From: Desulfobacterales bacterium
Lineage (GTDB): Bacteria > Desulfobacterota > Desulfobacteria > Desulfobacterales > JAFDDL01
Length of the DNA: 64,000 nt
Assembly: GCA_040235505.1 (NCBI GenBank)
Contig: JBECKW010000059.1
Span: forward strand, 45,019 to 109,018
Reading direction: 5' to 3'
The first letter of the stretch is position 1, and each line of letters begins with the position of its first letter. The position numbers were made by a program, and so were the translations under genes. Positions 2,743 to 58,720 of this stretch are shown in pieces. Below the pieces are notes generated by a model, which did no database searches, was not told the origin of the DNA, and worked only from the letters and a program-made list of their open reading frames with translations.

Positions 2743-4506
2743 CTAGAACAACCCGGATACTTTTCCGGTGGCCGGATCAACGTCGATTCTTCTGAATGCC
2801 GGATTGGAGCCCGTACCCGGCATGAGGCTGATGGTACCTGCACACGGGCAGAGGAACTTGGCGCCGGAGTAGATAAGAACGTCTCTGATCGGAAGCGTCC
2901 AACCCTTGGGAACGCCCTTGACAGTCGGATCATGGCTGAGGCTCAAGTGCGTTTTTACCATCATGGTGGCGAAGTCCGCATATTTCGGATCTTCCTCGAG
3001 CATTTTCGCTTTGGCTTCGGCCTCGGGACTCCAGGAAACACCGTCCGCGCCATATACTTCCTTGGCAATGACAGCCACCCGGTCACGAAGCTTCATCTCC
3101 AGAGGATACAGAAAGTTGAAGTCGTTTTCGTCGTTGCAGGCATCGATGACCGCATCGGCGAATTCCAGTGCCCCTTCACCGCCTTTTTCCCAATGTCTGG
3201 ACTCGGCGCAACGGGCACCAGCGGCTTCAGCTGCTTTCTTGATAATAGCGACTTCGGCGTCCGTGTCGGTGTAGAAACGGTTGACACAGACCACCGGATT
3301 GATGCCGGATTTACGAATGATGCCGATCATGTGGACCATGTTTTCGACACCCTTTTCCAACAATCCGAGATTCTCCTTGGTGTATTCTTCGGCAAGCGCC
3401 TTGCCTGGAACCACTTTGGGACCGCCGCCGTGCATCTTGAGGGCGCGGACGGTAGTGGTGAGTACCGATACATGCGGTTTGAGGCCGGAGAAGCGGCATT
3501 TGACGTTCCAGAATTTTTCGAAACCGATGTCGGCGGCAAAACCGGATTCTGTCACATGATAATCGAACAGTTTCAATCCAACGCGGTCTGCGATAATGGA
3601 GCTCTGCCCCACGGCGATGTTGGCGAAGGGACCGGCATGCACGAAGCAGGGCTGGTATTCCGCGGTGCACATGAGGGTGGGGTTGATGGTGTTTCTCATA
3701 AAGGCTGCCATGGCATTACCCACTTCGAGGTCCCGACAGGTAACCGGCTTCCCGCTCTTGTCAAATGCCACGGTGATGTTGTTGATGCGTTCCTTGAGGT
3801 CCGCAAGGTCTGTGGCCACAGCCAGAATCGCCATCAGCTCAGAGCCGACCGCGATGCCGAATTTACTCTGCATGGTGAATCCGTCGGTCCGGCCGCCAAG
3901 GCCGATGACGATGTTTCGAAGCGCCTGGGCGCAGAAATCGATAATCCACCCGAGCTCGACCCGGGTCGGGTCGATGTTGAGGCGTCTCATGCCGGTGAGC
4001 CGCTGAAGCTGTTCATCGTTGTAGTTTCGTTCGTGCTGCATTCTGGCGGTCATGGCCACCATGCCGAGGTTATGGGCATTCATGATATCGTTGATATCAC
4101 CCGTCAATCCCAGTGAAAACTCCGTCATCGGGATGAGAAGCGAATTGCCGCCGCCGGCTGCGGTCCCTTTAACGTTCATGGTGGGGCCACCGGAGGGTTG
4201 ACGAAGGGCGCCGCCGACATTTACACCACGTTTACCGAGACCTTCCATAAGTCCCACGGACGTCGTGCTTTTTCCCTCACCCAGAGGAGTGGGGGTGATG
4301 GCGGTGACTTCGATATATTTTCCATCCGGTTTATCTTTGAGCCTGTCGATAACCTTGAGAAAGTCGATTTTAGACAGCCTCCCCATGGGAAGCATTTCAG
4401 ACGGATCAAGTCCGAGTTTCTCGCGCCAATCTTCCGGCATGGGCATGTTTTTTTCCGCTTCCTCTGAAATTTGCCAATCTTGCATGTTTACCGCATCGTA
4501 AGCCAT
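2743..4506 (-). CDS. fhs: formate--tetrahydrofolate ligase
   Basis: 587 aa. Motifs [12 protein letters not shown] and the overall FTHFS pattern. Strong AAAGGAGG SD upstream. Confidence 0.95.
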
Positions 4507-13438: not shown

Positions 13439-13720
13439 TTAAAGCTGTCGAGCAAGAAACCTCTTGATCGAGTCGAGCACCCTTTGGCCGGCCCGCATCG
13501 AACCGACGTAGATATTCACATCGTCAGCATACCGAGTGAGCCTACTATGCCGTCGGCTGACTTCTGCCAACTCATCCTGGCACCTCGAGATGCCGGTAGC
13601 ACAGGGCAGGTTGACAGATCTCCCCGTGTAATGCGCTTCCACCTTGACGCTTATGCCCGCCGCATTTACGGCCATGCTTTCCGTCCAGGTATCGGACTTT
13701 GAAGATATTTGCCTCCTCAT
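13439..13720 (-). pseudogene. degenerate fragment of a group II intron-type reverse transcriptase
   Basis: ...DELAEVSRRHSRLTRYADDVNIYVGSMRAGQRVLDSIKRFLARQL* matches the RT domain 5-7 pattern (YADD box, RAG.RV....RFL). The upstream RT motifs are degraded or out of frame. There is a premature TAA where KLKVN is expected, no maturase/X domain, and no domain V-like RNA downstream. Confidence 0.6.
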
Positions 13721-13891
13721 CCAGCATAGCCGCCTCGTATGCGGTTTCTGTTCGTCGGGCCAGCGCTTTGCCTGCGGCTTTCAGATCCCTCCTCGCGGAG
13801 GGCACGCTTGCCATCCGGTTAACACTTTCCCCTGTCGGGCGCGTAGAGGATTTACACCTCCAAGTGGATCCGACATGCCGGGCGCACAAAC

Positions 13892-51553: not shown

Positions 51554-52762
51554 ATGAAACACGTTGCGATGCTTAGGGGGGCGATTCAACGATATGCATG
51601 GGGCTCCACCACCGCCATCCCGGAATTTTTAGGAGAAGCACCTGATGGTGGTCCCCAGGCGGAACTTTGGCTCGGCGCCCATCCAAACGCTCCGTCGTCC
51701 GTGAATGTCGATGGTCGTTGGGTGCCAATAACACAACTTTTAGAAAAATCCCCGGACGATATTCTCGGTTCAGCCAGCGTCAACGCCGATAATCAGTTCC
51801 CATTCCTATTTAAAGTGCTGGCGGCTGCAAAACCACTTTCCATCCAGGCACATCCCGATGCCCGCCAAGCCATGGAGGGCTTTTCACGGGAAAACGCGCT
51901 GAATATCCCTCTCGATGCGCCACAACGTAACTATAAAGACGGCAACCACAAACCCGAATGCATTTGCGCGCTGACTCCCTTCTGGGCACTGAACGGATTC
52001 CGAAAAATTCGGGAAATACTGACCATGGTTTCAGAACTGTGTCCGGTGACCTTGTCCGGAGACATCGCACTCCTGAAATCGAATCAGAACTCACAAGGAC
52101 TAAAATGTTTCTTTCAAAGCCTGATGGAAAAAAAGAAGAACGAAGTCCGTTTGATAGTGGAAGAAACCGTCCGAAGCGCGAAGCAGTTTGAGAAACAAGA
52201 TTCTTCGGCCTCATGGATTCTTAAGCTCCATGAAGCCTATCAAAGAGATATCGGTGTGTTGGCGCCTGCGTTTTTAAACCTTGTTTGCCTGAACCCCGGG
52301 GAGGCCATGTATCTTTCTGCCGGTCGTCTTCACGCCTATCTGGAAGGTGTCGGTATAGAGATTATGGCCAATTCGGACAATGTGCTTCGCGGAGGACTTA
52401 CGCAGAAGCACATTGATGTACCCGAACTCTTAAAGGTGCTTCAATTTTCAGAAACGTCTGTCGATATTCTGAAGCCTGTCTCCACCGTGCCGGGTGAAAT
52501 GGTCTATGAAACACCCGCCGAAGAATTTGTCCTGTCCGAATTGACGGTAAAACGGCACCAGCAGTACGAAAGCCCGACGCATCGAGGGGTCGAAATCCTT
52601 CTTTGTACGCAAGGCGACGCGGACATTTATGAGGCTGACTCGCAAATACAAGTGCATATCAACCGTGGTATGTCTTTGCTGATACCCGCCTCGGTGCTCC
52701 GATACGACATTTCCGGCGACGCCGTTTTTTATAGGGCATCTTCGGTTATTTCAGGAAAATAA
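51554..52762 (+). CDS. manA: mannose-6-phosphate isomerase, class I
   Basis: YAWGS, AELWLGAHP, PFLFKVLAAAKPLSIQAHPD, NSDNVLRGGLT. Confidence 0.85.
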   Translation: MKHVAMLRGAIQRYAWGSTTAIPEFLGEAPDGGPQAELWLGAHPNAPSSVNVDGRWVPITQLLEKSPDDILGSASVNADNQFPFLFKVLAAAKPLSIQAHPDARQAMEGFSRENALNIPLDAPQRNYKDGNHKPECICALTPFWALNGFRKIREILTMVSELCPVTLSGDIALLKSNQNSQGLKCFFQSLMEKKKNEVRLIVEETVRSAKQFEKQDSSASWILKLHEAYQRDIGVLAPAFLNLVCLNPGEAMYLSAGRLHAYLEGVGIEIMANSDNVLRGGLTQKHIDVPELLKVLQFSETSVDILKPVSTVPGEMVYETPAEEFVLSELTVKRHQQYESPTHRGVEILLCTQGDADIYEADSQIQVHINRGMSLLIPASVLRYDISGDAVFYRASSVISGK

Positions 52763-52766
52763 AATC

Positions 52767-52795
52767 TTGACTTATTAAAAACATTTTTTTATTCT
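52767..52795 (+). promoter_or_regulatory. sigma-70-like promoter TTGACT-N17-TATTCT for the aro leader/operon
   Basis: Hexamers read directly. Predicted TSS about 25 nt before the leader ATG. Confidence 0.4.
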
Positions 52796-52826
52796 TTCAT
52801 AAATTTCAATCAAACGGACAGGTCAC

Positions 52827-52907
52827 ATGTATCGTTTTTTTAGCGGATCTTATTTTTATTTTAGCTTTTTCTGGCGATTTTACGCCCAGGATCCGCCCGG
52901 AATGTGA
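52827..52907 (+). CDS. candidate leader peptide MYRFFSGSYFYFSFFWRFYAQDPPGM (7 Phe, 4 Tyr, 1 Trp)
   Basis: ATG-to-TGA frame translated codon by codon. Weak AGG SD 4 nt upstream. Immediately followed by two terminator hairpins and the aro operon. Too short for the ORF track. Confidence 0.6.
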   Translation: MYRFFSGSYFYFSFFWRFYAQDPPGM

Positions 52908-52937
52908 TGGTAAATATTATATAGCGAAAGCATCAAA

Positions 52938-52972
52938 GCCGAGGGGATCCGATAACCCCACGGCTTTTTTTT
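52938..52972 (+). terminator. attenuator terminator T1
   Basis: GCCGAGGGG (52938-46) pairs with CCCCACGGC (52956-64) with one mismatch, followed by T8 (52965-72). Confidence 0.65.
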
Positions 52973-52981
52973 CGGGCAAAA

Positions 52982-53010
52982 GGCCGTGGAGACAACTTCA
53001 CGGCCTTTTT
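52982..53010 (+). terminator. attenuator terminator T2
   Basis: GGCCGTG (52982-88) pairs with CACGGCC (52999-53005), followed by T5. Ends 11 nt before the AGGAGGG SD of the first aro gene. Confidence 0.6.
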
Positions 53011-53032
53011 GCTTGAAAAAAGGAGGGTGAAT

Positions 53033-53851
53033 ATGACATTACTGGGTAAAAAGATCAGACTGGAGAGAATTCGAAACCGCAATAGTGGGAAAACCGTCAT
53101 TGTTCCAATGGATCATGGAATGACGGTGGGACCGATCCCAGGCATCGTCAACATCGAGGATGCCATTGAAAGGGTGGCCCTTGGGGGGGCAAATGCTGTT
53201 GTGGAGCATAAAGGGCTGGTGACCAAAGGGCTCGGGCAGAGAGGGCAGGATATAGGGCTGATCATACACCTGTCCGCCTCCACGCAGCTTTCGCCTTTCC
53301 CAAATGCCAAAACACTGGTTTGTTCTGTGGAGGAAGCTGTCAAATTGGGGGCGGATGCGGTCTCCATTCACGTTAATTTGGGAAATGGAGATGAAAAGGA
53401 GATGCTGCGCGATTTCGGATACGTTTCCCATGAGGCAAGAACATGGGGAATGCCCCTGCTGGCAATGATCTATCCAAGGGGGAAGAAGATAAGGAACGAG
53501 TTTGATCCGGATGTCATCAAACATGCGGCCAGGGTAGGGGACGAAATGGGCGCCGATCTTGTCAAGGTTTCTTATACCGGTTGTCCCGAAAGCTTCCGGA
53601 AGGTGGTGGAGGGATGCAGTATTCCGGTTGTCATTGCAGGCGGGCCGAAAATGTCATCGGATCACGATATCCTCGAAATGGTCAAGGGCGCCATGATGGC
53701 AGGTGGTGCCGGGGTTTCGATGGGGCGAAACATTTTCCAGCATTCGGATCCGACCCGGATGCTCATGGCTGTTTCCGGAATCGTACATGAAGGCCTGAGC
53801 GTTGACAGCGCTCTTGAAGTGTTGAAGAGAATGGATCGGGAAGCTGCTTAA
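53033..53851 (+). CDS. 2-amino-3,7-dideoxy-D-threo-hept-6-ulosonate (ADH) synthase, class I aldolase family (AroA')
   Basis: Close resemblance along the whole length to the archaeal ADH synthase pattern ([18 protein letters not shown]...GGANAV..HKG...[10 protein letters not shown]...YPRGK...GADLVK.SYTG...VVIAGGPK...GRNIFQH). Confidence 0.85.
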
Positions 53852-53912
53852 CCTCTGAAGTTTAGCCCCCGGCTACTGGATTCGAATATGTTACGGGAAA
53901 AGGATATCAGTC

Positions 53913-54905
53913 ATGAAAAAAGTATGGGTACAAATCGATCCATGGAATAAGGAAATGGTGATTACGGCCATCGAAGGCGGCGCAGATGCCGTTGTGGTTC
54001 CGGAGGGATACAGCACGGAAGTAAAAGCACTGGGCAAAATCCAGACCATATCTGAAGACGGCGACCTAAAGCCGGGGGAGCAGGTGGCTTTTTTTACGAT
54101 CCGGAGCGGAAAGGATGAGGCTGAAATCGTTCGGCTGAGTCGGAACAGACAGTTGGTGCTGGAGTGCACGGACTGGACCATTATTCCCCTTGAAAATTTG
54201 ATTGCCAAGGGTGCCGATGTGATTGCAAGGGTGGAAAACGTTACAGAGGCAAAAACAGCCTTCGGGATTCTTGAAAAGGGTGTCAGCGGTATTTTGATTC
54301 AGTCGAAGGACCCGGCTTCCCTGAAAAAAATTCTCTCCGAAGTCAAGGGAATGGAAGAGAACACCCAGTTGTCGGTAGCGGAAATCATAGAAGTCAAACC
54401 CCTCGGCATGGGAGATCGTGTTTGCGTCGACACCTGTACCGCCATGAAACCCGGAGAAGGCATGCTGGTTGGAAACAGCAGCAATGCCTTGTTTCTCGTT
54501 CATGCCGAAAGCGTTTCAAACCCTTATGTCTCTCCCAGGCCATTCAGGGTAAACGCCGGACCCGTGCATGCCTACACCCGCGTTTCAGGAGGAAAAACGC
54601 GCTACCTGTCGGAGCTCTCATCCGGCGATTCGGTGATGCTCGTTGATTTCCGTGGAAAGACGACGGTGGGGATTGTCGGGCGGCTGAAAATAGAAAAAAG
54701 ACCGCTGATGCTTGTGACCGCAAAAGTCGGCGAAATGCAGATAAGCACGATCCTCCAAAATGCCGAAACCATCCGGCTTACGGATCCGGAGGGCAACCCT
54801 CTATCCATCGTGAACCTGAAGGAAGGCGATAAGGTCCTGGTGGCGATTGAAACAGGCGGACGGCATTTCGGAATGAAAATAGAAGAAACGATCACGGAGA
54901 AATAA
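53913..54905 (+). CDS. 3-dehydroquinate synthase II (AroB', archaeal type)
   Basis: 330 aa. N-terminus KKVWVQIDPWNKEMVITAIEGGADAVVVPEGY and the overall pattern match the DHQ synthase II family. Adjacent to the ADH synthase gene. Confidence 0.8.
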   Translation: MKKVWVQIDPWNKEMVITAIEGGADAVVVPEGYSTEVKALGKIQTISEDGDLKPGEQVAFFTIRSGKDEAEIVRLSRNRQLVLECTDWTIIPLENLIAKGADVIARVENVTEAKTAFGILEKGVSGILIQSKDPASLKKILSEVKGMEENTQLSVAEIIEVKPLGMGDRVCVDTCTAMKPGEGMLVGNSSNALFLVHAESVSNPYVSPRPFRVNAGPVHAYTRVSGGKTRYLSELSSGDSVMLVDFRGKTTVGIVGRLKIEKRPLMLVTAKVGEMQISTILQNAETIRLTDPEGNPLSIVNLKEGDKVLVAIETGGRHFGMKIEETITEK

Positions 54906-54971
54906 AGCGTTTTCATAAACTAGACCGACGATTATTGCGTGACGCACTTACCGGAATGAAGAGGAGTATTC

Positions 54972-56096
54972 ATGGGCAGGAAAAAAGATGAAAGCTCACA
55001 TCCCCCCCAGAACATCGAAGAGATGTTGAAAGAGTTGAGGGACAGGATCGACAGTATCGACAATCAAATTTTAAATCTTTTAAACCAGCGACTGGGAGTC
55101 GCCAAGGAGATCGGCAGATGCAAGGGCCGGTCCTCCGAGGTCGTCATGGACAGCGCAAGGGAAACAAATGTTGTCAAACGCTTGTTTTCATTAAATAAAG
55201 GACCAATGAGCAATGAGTCGATCCAGCATATTTTTACAGAGATATTCGGATCTTCCCGGGAGGCTCAGCAACCTCATCTGGTGACGTATCTAGGGCCCGA
55301 GGCGACCTATACGCATATCGCGGCGAAGGCATATTTCGGAAAATCCGCGTCCTTCGTTCCGCAGCCCAGCATTCGCGATGTTTTTCAGTCGGTGGAAAAG
55401 GGCGATGCCCATTACGGGATCGTGCCGGTGGAAAACTCGATTGAAGGCGCCGTCAATTATACGCTTGATCTTTTCTACGAATCGGAGCTGAAGATATGCG
55501 CTGAAACCTATCTTAACATTTCCCATGATCTGCTTTCCAGCGCTGGTTCACTGAAAGAAATAGAGCTGGTCTATTCCCATCCCCAGGCGCTGGCCCAGTG
55601 CCGGACATGGCTAAGGAAATACCTGCCGGACGTATCAGTCCAGGAAGTCGGAAGCACCTCCGAAGCCGCCCGGATGGCGCTTTCCAAAAAGAGGTCTGCG
55701 GCAATTGCCAGCCGTGAAGCGTCGCAGATATATAAACTGGACGTTCTGGCGTCGAAGATTGAAGATTTTTCCAGAAATACAACCCGATTTCTGGTCATCG
55801 GGAAAAAAGCCGCGCGTCCCACCGGTCGGGATAAAACCTCCATCATGTTTGTCACACCGCATACGCCGGGCGCACTTTATAAGGTCATGACTCCCATTGC
55901 CGAAGCGGGACTGAATATGGTAAAGCTCGAATCCAGACCTAGCCGGCAGGAGAACTGGACCTATATCTTTTTCCTTGATCTGGAAGGTCATATAGACCAA
56001 GACGAGGTGAAGCAGACCTTAGAACATATGAAACAAATCTGCCTCTTTACCAAGTGGCTCGGCTCTTATCCAATTCGTAATAAAATTGAAGCATAA
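54972..56096 (+). CDS. pheA: bifunctional chorismate mutase / prephenate dehydratase (P-protein)
   Basis: CM domain (LRDRIDSIDNQILNLLNQRL), PDT domain (YLGPEATYTH, VPVENSIEG, TRF) and an ACT domain. Confidence 0.9.
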   Translation: MGRKKDESSHPPQNIEEMLKELRDRIDSIDNQILNLLNQRLGVAKEIGRCKGRSSEVVMDSARETNVVKRLFSLNKGPMSNESIQHIFTEIFGSSREAQQPHLVTYLGPEATYTHIAAKAYFGKSASFVPQPSIRDVFQSVEKGDAHYGIVPVENSIEGAVNYTLDLFYESELKICAETYLNISHDLLSSAGSLKEIELVYSHPQALAQCRTWLRKYLPDVSVQEVGSTSEAARMALSKKRSAAIASREASQIYKLDVLASKIEDFSRNTTRFLVIGKKAARPTGRDKTSIMFVTPHTPGALYKVMTPIAEAGLNMVKLESRPSRQENWTYIFFLDLEGHIDQDEVKQTLEHMKQICLFTKWLGSYPIRNKIEA

Positions 56097-56099
56097 GAC

Positions 56100-56918
56100 A
56101 TGATATCAACCCGTACAAACGTTTACTGTGTTATCGGAAAGCCCGTATCGCACAGCCTCAGCCCGATCATGCACAATGCAGCCTTCGAAAAAATCGGCTA
56201 CGACGGCGTTTATCTTGCTTTCGAGGTGGAGGATATTTCCGCCGCTGTCGGCGGTATCCGGAGTCTCGGTATCCGTGGCGTCAGTGTGACCATCCCCCAT
56301 AAAGTATCCGTGATGTCATATCTTGATGAAATTGACACCACTGCGCTCAAAATCGGTGCCGTCAATACCATCGTGAACCGGCACGGAAAGCTGAAAGGAT
56401 ACAATACGGATTTTCAGGGAGCTTTGAAAGCATTGGCTGAAAAGAGCGATATCCACGGAAAGAGGGTTCTCGTTCTTGGTGCGGGAGGGGCGGCCAGGGC
56501 AATCGGGTTCGGTATCAACATGGAAGGCGGCCGCCTCACCATTTCAAATCGAAGTCTAGAGAGAGGGGAACGCCTTGCGGAAGATCTTCAGGCTTCCTTT
56601 TGCGCGCCCGATGTTATTGAACGAAATTCATGGGACATTATCATCAATACCACTTCCGTCGGTATGACCCCTGAAACTGATAGGATGCCGGTTCCAGAAA
56701 CTATTCTGACGCCCGGTCAGGTTGTCATGGACATTGTCTATAATCCTCTCGAGACACTTCTTTTGAAAACAGCTCGGGATAAGGGATGTGCCACCGTAGA
56801 CGGCGCAGCCATGTTCGTCTACCAGGGCGCCTGTCAATTTGAACTCTGGACCGCCCAAAGCGCTCCTGTTTCAGTTATGGGCCAAGCCGTTAGAGGAGTT
56901 TTGTTGAAACGGAAATAG
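56100..56918 (+). CDS. aroE: shikimate dehydrogenase
   Basis: GKPVSHSLSPIMHN, VTIPHK, NTD, GAGGAARA. Confidence 0.9.
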   Translation: MISTRTNVYCVIGKPVSHSLSPIMHNAAFEKIGYDGVYLAFEVEDISAAVGGIRSLGIRGVSVTIPHKVSVMSYLDEIDTTALKIGAVNTIVNRHGKLKGYNTDFQGALKALAEKSDIHGKRVLVLGAGGAARAIGFGINMEGGRLTISNRSLERGERLAEDLQASFCAPDVIERNSWDIIINTTSVGMTPETDRMPVPETILTPGQVVMDIVYNPLETLLLKTARDKGCATVDGAAMFVYQGACQFELWTAQSAPVSVMGQAVRGVLLKRK

Positions 56919-56934
56919 GCCCCAACAGAGATCT

Positions 56935-58197
56935 ATGATGAAAGAGATTAAAACAGCACCCGTTAAAAACACAACCGTTCAGGTCCCCGGATCCAAAAGC
57001 TATACCCACAGAATCCTCATTGCATCGGCTCTCTCCGACGGCGCATGTCGAATTGAAAATCCGCTGAGAAGCGAAGATACGCTTTTCACCGTAAAGGGGC
57101 TCCGCGGGATGGGAGTGAAAATCGAGGACCACACGGAATACTTGCTGGTCAGAGGAAACGGTGGCCGTCTGGAGACGGCCGAAGAGGATATCTATCTCGG
57201 AAACTCCGGCACCTCCGTGAGGCTTCTGACAGGGATCTGCGGTATCGGAAACGGCAGGTACCTCATTACCGGAACTTCCCGAATGCAGGAACGCCCCATT
57301 CAAGATCTTCTCGATGGACTTTCGCAACTTGGCATCCGCGCGGCATCGATTCATGGAAACGGATGCCCGCCCATAGAGATCTTTGGGAAGAAAATCGAAG
57401 GCGGGAGGGTCGATCTCAACTGTCATGTCAGCAGCCAGTATCTATCCTCCATTCTGTTGATGGCGCCTTTTTCTTTAAAGGGAATAGAAATCAACGTGGT
57501 GAACGGACCGGTGTCAAAACCGTATATCGATATGACGCTGGAAGTAATGAAACGTATGGACGTCGAGGTTTCCAGGGAGGGGTATGACCGGTTTTTCGTA
57601 CCCGGCCATCAGATTTATCGTTCGGGCACATATGAAGTGGAACCGGATTGCTCCCAGGCAGGATATTTCTGGGCGGCGGCCGCAGTTACCGGCGCTTCGA
57701 TTACCGTCCGTGGAATCCATTCAGATACCCGACAGGGAGATGTCCGATTTTCCAAAGTGCTGGGGGAAATGGGCTGCCGCATAACGGAAGAAAATGAAGG
57801 GATTTGCGTGACCGGCGGCCCCTTGAAGGGCATCTGCGTCGATATGTCCGATATGCCGGATATGGTCCCTACACTGGCCGTGGTGGCGGCGTTCGCCGAG
57901 GGGACAACGGAAATTTCCAATGTTTCGCATCTGAGAGCCAAAGAAAGCGATCGTCTGCAGAGCGTTGTCAACGAACTCACAAAGATGGGCATCGTTGCTG
58001 ATTGCGGCGGCAGTGGTCTTCGTATTACAGGGGGCCGTGGGCATGGCGCTTCCATCGACACATACAACGACCACCGCATGGCCATGAGTTTTTCCGTGGC
58101 AGGTCTTAAGATCCCGGATATTCGTATTGAAAACGAATTCTGCGTTTCAAAATCGTTCCCAAACTACTGGGAAGTATTCGAGTCCATTTACGAATAA
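56935..58197 (+). CDS. aroA: 3-phosphoshikimate 1-carboxyvinyltransferase (EPSP synthase)
   Basis: PGSKSYTHR, LGNSGTSVRLL, KESDRL, DHRMAMSF. Confidence 0.95.
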   Translation: MMKEIKTAPVKNTTVQVPGSKSYTHRILIASALSDGACRIENPLRSEDTLFTVKGLRGMGVKIEDHTEYLLVRGNGGRLETAEEDIYLGNSGTSVRLLTGICGIGNGRYLITGTSRMQERPIQDLLDGLSQLGIRAASIHGNGCPPIEIFGKKIEGGRVDLNCHVSSQYLSSILLMAPFSLKGIEINVVNGPVSKPYIDMTLEVMKRMDVEVSREGYDRFFVPGHQIYRSGTYEVEPDCSQAGYFWAAAAVTGASITVRGIHSDTRQGDVRFSKVLGEMGCRITEENEGICVTGGPLKGICVDMSDMPDMVPTLAVVAAFAEGTTEISNVSHLRAKESDRLQSVVNELTKMGIVADCGGSGLRITGGRGHGASIDTYNDHRMAMSFSVAGLKIPDIRIENEFCVSKSFPNYWEVFESIYE

Positions 58198-58198
58198 C

Positions 58199-58720
58199 AT
58201 GAATATTTTTCTTATTGGTTATCGGTGCACCGGTAAAACTTCAGTCGGAAGACGTGTCGCCCAACAACTTGGTTGGAAATTCATTGACATGGATGTTCTG
58301 CTGACGGAGACCAGCGGGGAAACCATCAGCGAAATTGTCTCCAGGGGCGGATGGCCTCTTTTCAGAAAAATGGAAAAGCAAGTTCTGGAAACGATCTGCA
58401 ATGGAGAAAACCAGGTGATTGCAACAGGCGGCGGAGTCGTGGTCGACAAAGAGAATATCGATCTGATGAAGAGGAGCGGAATCCTTTTTTGGCTGCGAGC
58501 AACCCCGGAAACGATCCTGAAAAGAATGACTGAAGATGTCCAAACTAAAAAGATGAGACCGTCTCTGACGGATCGTAAATTAAAAGATGAGATAGAAGAA
58601 ACACTGAAGGAAAGATATCCTCTGTATCGAACTGCCATGACCGCGGATTTCGATACGGAAGAAAAGACCATGCAGGAAGTATCAGAGGAAATTATCAGGC
58701 GCCTTAAGCACATGGGATGA
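58199..58720 (+). CDS. aroK: shikimate kinase
   Basis: ATG 58199 follows the aroA stop by 1 nt. MNIFLIGYRCTGKTSVGR (Walker A), TGGGVV. Confidence 0.9.
   Translation: MNIFLIGYRCTGKTSVGRRVAQQLGWKFIDMDVLLTETSGETISEIVSRGGWPLFRKMEKQVLETICNGENQVIATGGGVVVDKENIDLMKRSGILFWLRATPETILKRMTEDVQTKKMRPSLTDRKLKDEIEETLKERYPLYRTAMTADFDTEEKTMQEVSEEIIRRLKHMG

Follow-up and report, generated by a model that had tools for sequence, protein, structure and literature searches.

The window analysed here is a stretch of 64,000 nucleotides (nt) from a Desulfobacterales bacterium (contig JBECKW010000059.1 of assembly GCA_040235505.1), in which the region 52767-53032 separates manA from a six-gene aro operon. This region very probably constitutes a ribosome-mediated leader-peptide transcription attenuator, which possesses its own promoter and would control the genes for ADH synthase, DHQ synthase II, PheA, AroE, AroA and AroK. 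An earlier interpretation of the same letters, referred to below as the sequence-only reading, had proposed an attenuator of the pheL/trpL type ending at 53032, and this end coordinate is right, the ATG of the first aro gene being located at 53033. The genes (assigned by Pfam) and the leader features are the following:

51554-52762, + strand: manA (type I phosphomannose isomerase), the 5' neighbour of the leader region
52767-52795, + strand: sigma-70-like promoter, TTGACT (52767-52772), a 17-nt spacer and TATTCT (52790-52795); 9 of 12 matches in a consensus scan
52816-52822, + strand: weak Shine-Dalgarno (SD)-like motif GGACAGG, 4 nt 5' of the leader ATG, from sequence reading
52827-52907, + strand: leader open reading frame (ORF) of 26 codons plus TGA, encoding MYRFFSGSYFYFSFFWRFYAQDPPGM, from sequence reading and translation
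53020-53035, + strand: SD sequence AAGGAGGG and ATG (53033) of the first structural gene, from sequence reading
53033-58720, + strand: six-gene aro operon, which would be under the leader's control
53033-53851, + strand: DeoC/LacD-type aldolase of the ADH-synthase type, the first structural gene
53913-54905, + strand: DHQ synthase II (PF01959)
54972-56096, + strand: chorismate mutase/prephenate dehydratase (pheA)
56100-56918, + strand: shikimate dehydrogenase (aroE)
56935-58197, + strand: EPSP synthase (aroA)
up to 58720, + strand: shikimate kinase (aroK)

Homologues of the aldolase carry the NCBI name 2-amino-3,7-dideoxy-D-threo-hept-6-ulosonate synthase. The shikimate kinase ORF as listed starts at TTG 58127 and overlaps the end of the EPSP synthase gene by 71 nt (58127-58197, + strand); the real aroK start is probably located downstream of this TTG.

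The promoter of the leader, which begins 5 nt past the manA stop codon, and the leader ORF are both present as the sequence-only reading had described them. The encoded peptide contains seven Phe, four Tyr and one Trp, i.e., twelve aromatic residues among 26, and no other mini-ORF in any of the six frames of the window has 6 or more aromatic residues in 10. Furthermore, twelve or more aromatic codons arose in just 4 of 100,000 mononucleotide shuffles of the ORF (4e-5), none of which retained an open frame. The aromatic content is thus not compositional, contrary to a caveat that had been attached to the Phe codons, and the ORF is not a by-product of T-richness because it is unique in 64 kb and has so low a shuffle probability. 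A small hairpin is predicted at 52812-52837 (+ strand; AAACGGACA...UGU.AUCGUU), which encloses the SD-like GGACAGG and the leader AUG and which, to judge from the folding model, could limit ribosome loading on the leader.

Downstream of, and partly within, the leader ORF lie the segments that are capable of alternative pairing, among which are two intrinsic terminators, T1 and T2:

52843-52851, + strand: segment 1, GCGGAUCUU, leader codons 6-9, which forms an anti-antiterminator with segment 2 (minimum free energy (MFE) fold and pair probability)
52888-52900, + strand: segment 2, AGGAUCCGCCCGG, segment A of the sequence-only reading and partner of segment 1 or segment 3 (folding and duplex tests)
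52938-52950, + strand: segment 3, GCCGAGGGGAUCC, previously segment B, comprising the T1 5' arm (52938-46) and the first loop bases (duplex energy)
52938-52972, + strand: T1, GCCGAGGGG (52938-46), loop AUCCGAUAA, CCCCACGGC (52956-64) and U8 (52965-72) (sequence, fold and hairpin scan)
52956-52969, + strand: segment 4, previously segment C, consisting of the T1 3' arm and the first U residues and complementary to segment 5, AAAAGGCCGUGG (stepwise fold)
52978-53010, + strand: T2, AAAA GGCCGUGGAG, ACAA, CUUCACGGCC and U5 (53006-10), the 5' arm being segment D and the 3' arm segment E (sequence, fold and hairpin scan)

Both terminators that had been proposed, T1 at 52938-52972 with U8 and T2 at 52982-53010 with U5, are present. 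They were detected by a purpose-made hairpin scan, a simple terminator scan having missed both because of the restrictions it places on loops and mismatches; the stem of T1 contains an internal mismatch, and its loop measures 9 nt. T2, with arms GGCCGTGGAG (52982-91) and CTTCACGGCC (52996-53005), comprises 10-12 GC-rich pairs followed by U5-6 and is a strong terminator. The complementarities that had been pointed out are likewise correct: segment A (GGATCCGCCCGG, 52889-900) can pair with segment B (GCCGAGGGGATCC, 52938-50) at 10 of 12 positions, and C (CCACGGC, 52958-64) is fully complementary to D (GCCGTGG, 52983-89) at 7 of 7. Segments A to E were therefore correctly defined in the sequence-only reading, which nevertheless overlooked segment 1 (52843-51): GCGGAUCUU pairs with AGGAUCCGC (52888-96) with a probability of 0.93-1.0 when no ribosome is present. 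With segment 1 added, the element is seen to follow the full 1:2 / 2:3 / 3:4 design of a classical attenuator, to which the hairpin T2 is added. Segment 2 is located at the end of the leader ORF, 5 nt short of the stop codon, and its duplex with segment 3 in the window has a predicted energy of -25.1 kcal/mol. The leader region as a whole folds at -82 kcal/mol (z = -5.55 against dinucleotide shuffles).

To place the element in a wider context, 80 loci were fetched from a one-genome-per-species collection, and 23 ADH-synthase homologues were aligned. These loci, whose ADH-synthase proteins exhibit 59-76% identity, are mostly from Desulfobacterales and other Thermodesulfobacteriota, with a few from Aquificota, Deferribacteres, Planctomycetota and others. 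The upstream regions of these relatives were searched for a Phe/Tyr/Trp-rich mini-ORF and for compensatory base changes, and both were found. In an ORF scan, about 55 of the 80 loci proved to have an aromatic-rich mini-ORF 5' of their ADH-synthase gene; it ends approximately 105-175 nt ahead of the start of that gene and encodes, for example, MVHNRSGRYYFYYWYFFNTGLPGVR (locus L003) or MKAIAGRFFYFYFWYYYFSTGLPG (L004). The closest relative (L081, 83% protein identity) shares the manA-leader-aro synteny of the window, and its leader, which encodes MQLTACGSFFYFSFFWRFFAKDPPLE, is also followed by both hairpins. Two tandem terminators follow the ORF in 30 loci, the window included, and a single one in others. 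Among cultured relatives, Desulfobotulus alkaliphilus (L016) yielded a terminator of the T2 type only, and in Desulfosudis oleivorans (L004) T1 is without a good U-tract; Desulfonema magnum also appears among the sources of homologues.

A covariance model built from the 30 two-terminator sequences matches the window once, on the + strand (52824-53017, 109.6 bits, E 2e-18). At E<1e-9 it also matches 40 other loci, including eleven from outside the training set. Minus-strand matches of this model were discarded, as they represent palindromic terminators read in reverse. A leader ORF is present in 40 of the 41 matches, with a median length of 26.5 amino acids, of which 35% are aromatic; across these 40 ORFs Tyr codons number 178, Phe codons 155 and Trp codons 40, Trp being represented in 31 of them. 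The order of the aromatic codons varies freely across the family, while the run of UUU, UAU and UGG codons stays in one open frame, and the stop codon is found within or beside segment 2 throughout. In 31 of the 40 members the start codon selected has an SD-like motif on its 5' side. Promoter sequences are similarly retained: 29 of 40 related loci have a perfect TTGACA no more than about 110 nt 5' of the leader, the promoter score is at least 10 in 13 of 40 loci versus 2% of control windows, and the -10 element typically lies 27-50 nt ahead of the leader start.

These data bear directly on an explanation that takes T1 and T2 to be the terminators of manA, ascribes the mini-ORF to the T-richness of the spacer and has the aro operon transcribed on its own. 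The hairpins do lie 176-248 nt past the manA stop codon on the same strand, in a T-rich region, and the sequence-only reading had itself raised this caveat. Against it, about 40 loci combine the leader and its terminators with the ADH-synthase operon, manA being the 5' neighbour in only 9 of them, and related loci keep the downstream order ADH synthase - DHQ synthase II - (pheA) - aroE - aroA; because of this combination the hairpins are assigned to the aro leader and not to manA. In addition, a conserved TTGACA promoter separates the leader from the upstream gene, the reading frame of the ORF is maintained with an aromatic content far above that expected from composition, and the 22 nt from the T2 U-tract to the start codon, SD sequence included, leave no room for a separate aro promoter after 53010. 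This explanation is consequently regarded as scarcely credible.

Several family members display arrangements of their own. Locus L051, which carries a leader ahead of its ADH-synthase gene, has a second aromatic leader (MTTTTQNWQRFYFYYFWGSGMPMR; 2048-2193, + strand) with a single terminator 5' of aroK and chorismate synthase, the latter apparently split over two ORFs (2753-3262 and 3451-3807); such extra copies would fit a regulon logic. Sequence-divergent matches with two tandem terminators were found 5' of a DUF362 gene in L079 (210-382, + strand) and L069 (72-228, + strand). The L079 leader, MDVGTKRMFDYYYRQAIHLCA, contains three Tyr codons in succession, and the terminators of the two loci possess complementary inner arms (CCAUGGCCC / GGGCCAUAG) and have GGCCAUGG/GGCCAUAG in common in their stems. 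The gene that follows encodes a 392-residue DUF362 protein (PF04015) and is succeeded by genes for a biotin carboxylase and a biotin-lipoyl protein, an arrangement which suggests that DUF362 is linked with tyrosine supply. In the Desulfovibrionaceae loci L060 (2919-3026, + strand) and L075 (2924-3052, + strand) the aromatic leader is situated about 1 kb 5' of the matched gene, and in L060 two DeoC-type aldolase paralogues follow the leader in tandem.

The pairings described for the window are supported by covariation. Counts were made on the covariance-model alignment (A4, 41 sequences), which was fitted to the terminator state, such that counts for the alternative pairs are unbiased by the fit; a MAFFT alignment (A2) misregisters segments 1 and 2 in several rows, the window included. 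On A4 the terminator state (1:2, T1 and T2) has 92.2% of cells paired and compensatory double changes at 24 of 31 pairs, versus 36-55% paired in slid controls, and the MAFFT alignment gave a similar result. None of 500 shuffles equalled this covariation, a figure that, like the permutation values below, overstates significance since the family sequences are related, a kinship which slid-partner and negative-control segment pairs offset only in part. By helix, 1:2 is 83% paired on A4 with compensatory changes at 6 of 6 pairs, T1 94-95% with changes at 10 of 12 pairs, and T2 95-96% with changes at 7 of 12. The C:D core, i.e., the pairing between the inner arms of the two terminators, is 96.6% paired on A4 and 97.1% on A2, with double changes at 4 of 7 pairs.

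The register of the 2:3 helix differs among lineages, for which reason an alignment-free test was employed that compares the energies of cognate and non-cognate duplexes over the 30 two-terminator loci. The cognate duplexes are the more stable for 1:2 (-22.8 versus -17.9 kcal/mol), for 2:3 (-29.3 versus -22.4 kcal/mol) and for C:D (-15.5 versus -13.9 kcal/mol), each with a permutation p<2e-4, and marginally so for B:E (-11.3 versus -10.6 kcal/mol, p = 0.027), while the negative-control pairs of segment 1 with segment 3 and of segment 1 with C exhibited no significant cognate advantage in this test. The 2:3 antiterminator is supported mainly by this comparison, the fixed-register counts being weaker. 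Conservation of the mini-ORF (in about 55 of 80 loci), the promoter, the terminators and these co-varying pairings together argue for the pheL/trpL-type attenuator that the sequence-only reading had put forward.

A concerted change in the window's own lineage is consistent with this picture. The family consensus is CAGGCAGA for segment 1, GGUCUGCCUGG for segment 2 and GGGCAGAC for segment 3. In the window and in L081, by contrast, GGAUC replaces the family CAGGCAGA, GUCUGCC and GGCAGAC in each of these segments; the GGATC of the window is therefore compensated in all three partner segments. This change also bears on the idea that the leader products act in trans, additionally or instead, in the form of an aromatic-rich peptide or of a short RNA terminated at T1 or T2. 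Attenuator-derived products with such functions, rnTrpL and peTrpL of Sinorhizobium, are described in PMC6614838 and PMC7298713, and many family members have kept a C-terminal motif, GLPGVR. That motif is, however, encoded by segment 2 (GGUCUGCCUGGGGUGCGC), for whose conservation RNA pairing suffices, and the C-termini of the window (DPPGM) and of L081 (DPPLE) differ from it exactly where segment 2 is altered and segments 1 and 3 compensate. Because the motif changes precisely with the RNA segment, the constraint on the C-terminal coding segment would seem to act on the RNA and not on the peptide. Furthermore, five leader peptides of the family, including that of the window, returned no match at E<=10 in NCBIfam or Pfam. 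A role in trans is accordingly rated as unlikely.

Database comparisons addressed whether a sensor other than a translating ribosome, for example a riboswitch, a T-box-like tRNA sensor or a TRAP-like protein, is at work, with the ORF being incidental. An unusually high stem conservation for terminators (GCCGUGG, etc.) could be read in this way. However, no Rfam 15 family, T-box and riboswitch families included, reached its gathering score in the leader region or in six related loci, and no T-box or metabolite riboswitch model was among the matches to E=10 in 52600-53200, or at gathering score elsewhere. The only Rfam match in 52600-53200 (E<=10) is an insignificant one to Phe_leader (RF01859) at 52819-52973, with 19.1 bits and an E of 1.4 against a gathering score of 55. 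The conserved features outside the helices are the start codon, the open frame and the run of UUU/UAU/UGG codons, with an SD-like motif in most members, and a stop codon in or next to segment 2 across the family corresponds to the geometry of classical attenuation. The stem conservation is itself accounted for because each arm has two or three alternative partners. Such a sensor is thus considered very unlikely. Elsewhere in the window, Rfam matches to group-II-D1D4-3 (132.9 bits) and group-II-D1D4-1 (43.2 bits) at 13490-13802 (- strand) indicate a group II intron.

The behaviour of the leader RNA was modelled by folding with the ribosome represented as a mask. In the absence of a ribosome, 1:2, T1 and T2 each form with a probability of at least 0.93. 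With the P site at codons 9-12 (Y F Y F), the probability of 2:3 is 0.36-0.96 once segment 4 has been made, while a ribosome at codons 18-27, including the stop codon, covers segment 2, giving a 2:3 probability of 0 and a T1 probability of 0.89-0.98. The re-formation of 1:2 at codons 13-17 is an artefact of the model, in which RNA is paired across a ribosome. In stepwise folding with segment 1 masked, 2:3 is the MFE structure before and at the completion of segment 4, and once D has been made the MFE structure (-40.9 kcal/mol) combines 2:3 with a 12-bp C:D helix, formed by the 3' arm and U-tract of T1 together with the T2 A-run and 5' arm. At this stage 2:3 is present in 27, and C:D in 26, of the 30 two-terminator loci.

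A mechanism can be proposed on this basis. Transcription would begin just past 52795, and the 26-codon leader (52827-52907) would be translated while it is being made. When charged tRNA-Phe, tRNA-Tyr and tRNA-Trp are plentiful, the ribosome would reach the TGA and cover segment 2 (52888-900), whereupon segments 3 and 4 would pair as T1 and the polymerase would halt at U8; a polymerase that escapes T1 would then meet T2, the 5' arm of which would be free to fold while segment 4 is held in T1. If no ribosome is loaded, segments 1 and 2 would pair and both terminators would form. A ribosome stalled on the aromatic codons (roughly 9-16) would instead cover segment 1 and leave segment 2 free to pair with segment 3 as the antiterminator, which would preclude T1. 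The segment 4 thus freed, together with the T1 U-tract, would pair with the T2 A-run and 5' arm (the 12-bp C:D helix), delaying T2 and letting the polymerase pass into the operon. That the leader peptide attenuates at T1 is the part of this mechanism in which we place high confidence. Whether the C:D relay relieves T2 so that transcription can pass is evenly balanced, and the complete scheme, in which one ribosome-sensed switch governs two consecutive terminators by a six-segment relay (1:2, 3:4 and 5:6 in the off state, 2:3 and 4:5 in the on state), is put forward tentatively, as falling just short of that balance.

A number of observations weigh against these proposals. Once the T2 3' arm has been made, T1 with T2 (-55.6 kcal/mol) and 2:3 with T2 (-51.2 kcal/mol) are both more stable than 2:3 with C:D (-42.9 kcal/mol), 20-23 of the 30 two-terminator loci revert to the terminators at full length, and T1 is already the MFE structure in 20 of 30 once segment 4 and the A/U extensions exist. 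The conservation of C:D is partly a by-product of the near-identity of the T1 and T2 stems, B:E being 90.2% paired as well, and the T1 and T2 stems of L008, L021 and L024 are altered without a perfect C:D. The 2:3 helix is paired at only 77-82% in a fixed register, and the kinship of the family sequences inflates the significance values as mentioned above. In the window both the SD motif (GGACAGG) and the -10 element (TATTCT) are weak. In L066 (3840-3990, + strand) a TTGACA promoter is directly followed by both family-type terminators, and these are thus retained without an aromatic ORF, the only ORF being one of 5 codons with a GTG start; this locus may represent a degenerate or differently controlled variant. 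Finally, the evidence for the attenuator is sequence inference throughout, and this applies to translation of the leader ORF, to stalling as the signal, to termination at T1 and T2 and to the kinetic protection by C:D.

The sequence-only reading had held that A:B and C:D replace T1 and T2, and had called for a comparison of the energies of the folding states. That comparison sustains the claim in part: C:D is conserved and compensated, and 2:3 with C:D is the MFE structure when D has just been made, but T1 and T2 are favoured thermodynamically as soon as the T2 3' arm exists. Since the terminators win at equilibrium from this point on, the relay requires a kinetic trap. In folding terms it is a well-defined and conserved intermediate, which would spare T2 only as such a trap. 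Equilibrium folding was rejected as a criterion for the relay, as T1 with T2 always wins at full length and classical attenuators are under kinetic control. In the trp attenuator, too, the 3:4 hairpin is more stable than 2:3, and control is kinetic.

The same energies also speak for a reading in which attenuation operates at T1 only and there is no C:D relay. T2 would then act constitutively, as a back-up or to limit leakage, or would be a duplicate of T1, and its read-through would reflect intrinsic leakiness or another factor. The T1 and T2 stems are near-duplicates, from which the C:D complementarity could have been inherited, as the pairing of B:E also allows. The many family members with a single terminator (L013, L017, L034-38, L051 and L070-76) and C:D mismatches at co-varying positions in L008, L021, L024 and L045 also accord with this view. 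On the other hand, C:D equals the true hairpins in its degree of retention and surpasses B:E: its most variable position has 6 unpaired cells versus 12 for B:E, and the cognate advantage of its duplexes is clear where that of B:E is slight. All four arms have changed in concert in L054 and L042 (CCAUGG), in L019 (GCAGG) and in L002 and L018 (GUGA), and the divergent Tyr-codon element of L079 likewise has two terminators with complementary inner arms. Moreover, a strong T2 located 22 nt from the start codon would, if unregulated, choke an essential operon, and for this reason a means of passing T2 is to be expected. Attenuation at T1 alone is hence viewed as possible, though somewhat doubtful.

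The attenuator proposed here resembles several known systems. Like pheL-pheA of E. coli (RF01859), it has a short leader ORF with Phe codons, 1:2, 2:3 and 3:4 pairings, and a terminator ahead of a chorismate mutase/prephenate dehydratase gene. Unlike that system, its leader contains Tyr and Trp codons besides Phe, it possesses a second terminator, it would control the common pathway (the archaeal-type first two enzymes, aroE, aroA and aroK) in addition to pheA, and it is found in Thermodesulfobacteriota and not in gamma-proteobacteria; with 19.1 bits against a threshold of 55, it is not a member of the Phe_leader family. With trpL and hisL of E. coli and Salmonella it would share the coupling of transcription and translation, by which the position of the ribosome selects the antiterminator or the terminator. 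In hisL the alternative helices form a chain, A:B, C:D and E:F versus B:C and D:E, which resembles the relay proposed for the window. The trpL and hisL chains, however, end in one terminator, whereas that of the window would disarm two, and its regulatory codons are those of three amino acids.

The theory of classical attenuation is treated in PMC1183508, and in Yanofsky 1981 as cited in PMC11802643. The latter article describes (after Neshat et al. 2014) a Phe-Tyr-Phe leader 5' of the DAHP synthase gene aroF of C. glutamicum and reports it to be responsive to Phe and not to Tyr. To go by that account, aroR is likewise a leader-peptide attenuator with mixed aromatic codons ahead of the first committed enzyme of the common pathway; it precedes a classical DAHP synthase gene and has three regulatory codons and a single terminator, whereas the window element has twelve such codons, belongs to a different phylum and serves the ADH-synthase/DHQ synthase II route, the comparison being one by description only. 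Two serial intrinsic terminators in one 5' leader are also found in the tandem THI riboswitches before thiSGHFE in Desulfovibrio, each of which has its own terminator (PMC545781), and there, too, the off states should multiply; yet the THI arrangement has one sensor per terminator, while in the window a single sensor would control T2 indirectly through the T1 3' arm.

No description of the leader element was found in the literature, although an earlier computational prediction of it may exist; Rodionov 2004 (PMC545781) is without a section on regulation of the aromatic pathway. An ORF with codons for the end products, a terminator, an antiterminator, pairing of segment 1 and conservation upstream of orthologous operons are all present, as in classical attenuators. 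The element therefore appears to represent a family of classical attenuators that is new and widespread and whose conserved architecture, with its two terminators, is unusual.

For the organisms concerned, the element would be a concrete regulator of shikimate entry across many sulfate reducers and their relatives, no description having been found of how the bacterial archaeal-type entry (ADH synthase and DHQ synthase II) is regulated. A single leader for all three aromatic amino acids suits an operon that joins common-pathway genes with pheA. The family is missing from Rfam 15, Pfam and NCBIfam, and annotation pipelines at present overlook both the small ORF and the RNA; once recognized, it could be used for function prediction, as in the case of the Tyr-codon version 5' of the DUF362 gene. 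The attenuator paradigm is well known, while the mechanistic twist is new as far as the literature search shows. Many Desulfobacterales retain the two-terminator design, which is encountered again in the Tyr-codon leader of L079 and L069, and tandem terminators with complementary inner arms suggest multiplied attenuation from one sensor, which is of interest for RNA control and synthetic biology. If the relay is true, the leakages of the two terminators would be multiplied in the off state, while one stalled ribosome would suffice to open both. The element would then represent a new type of attenuator architecture and offer, in compact and natural form, a high dynamic range.

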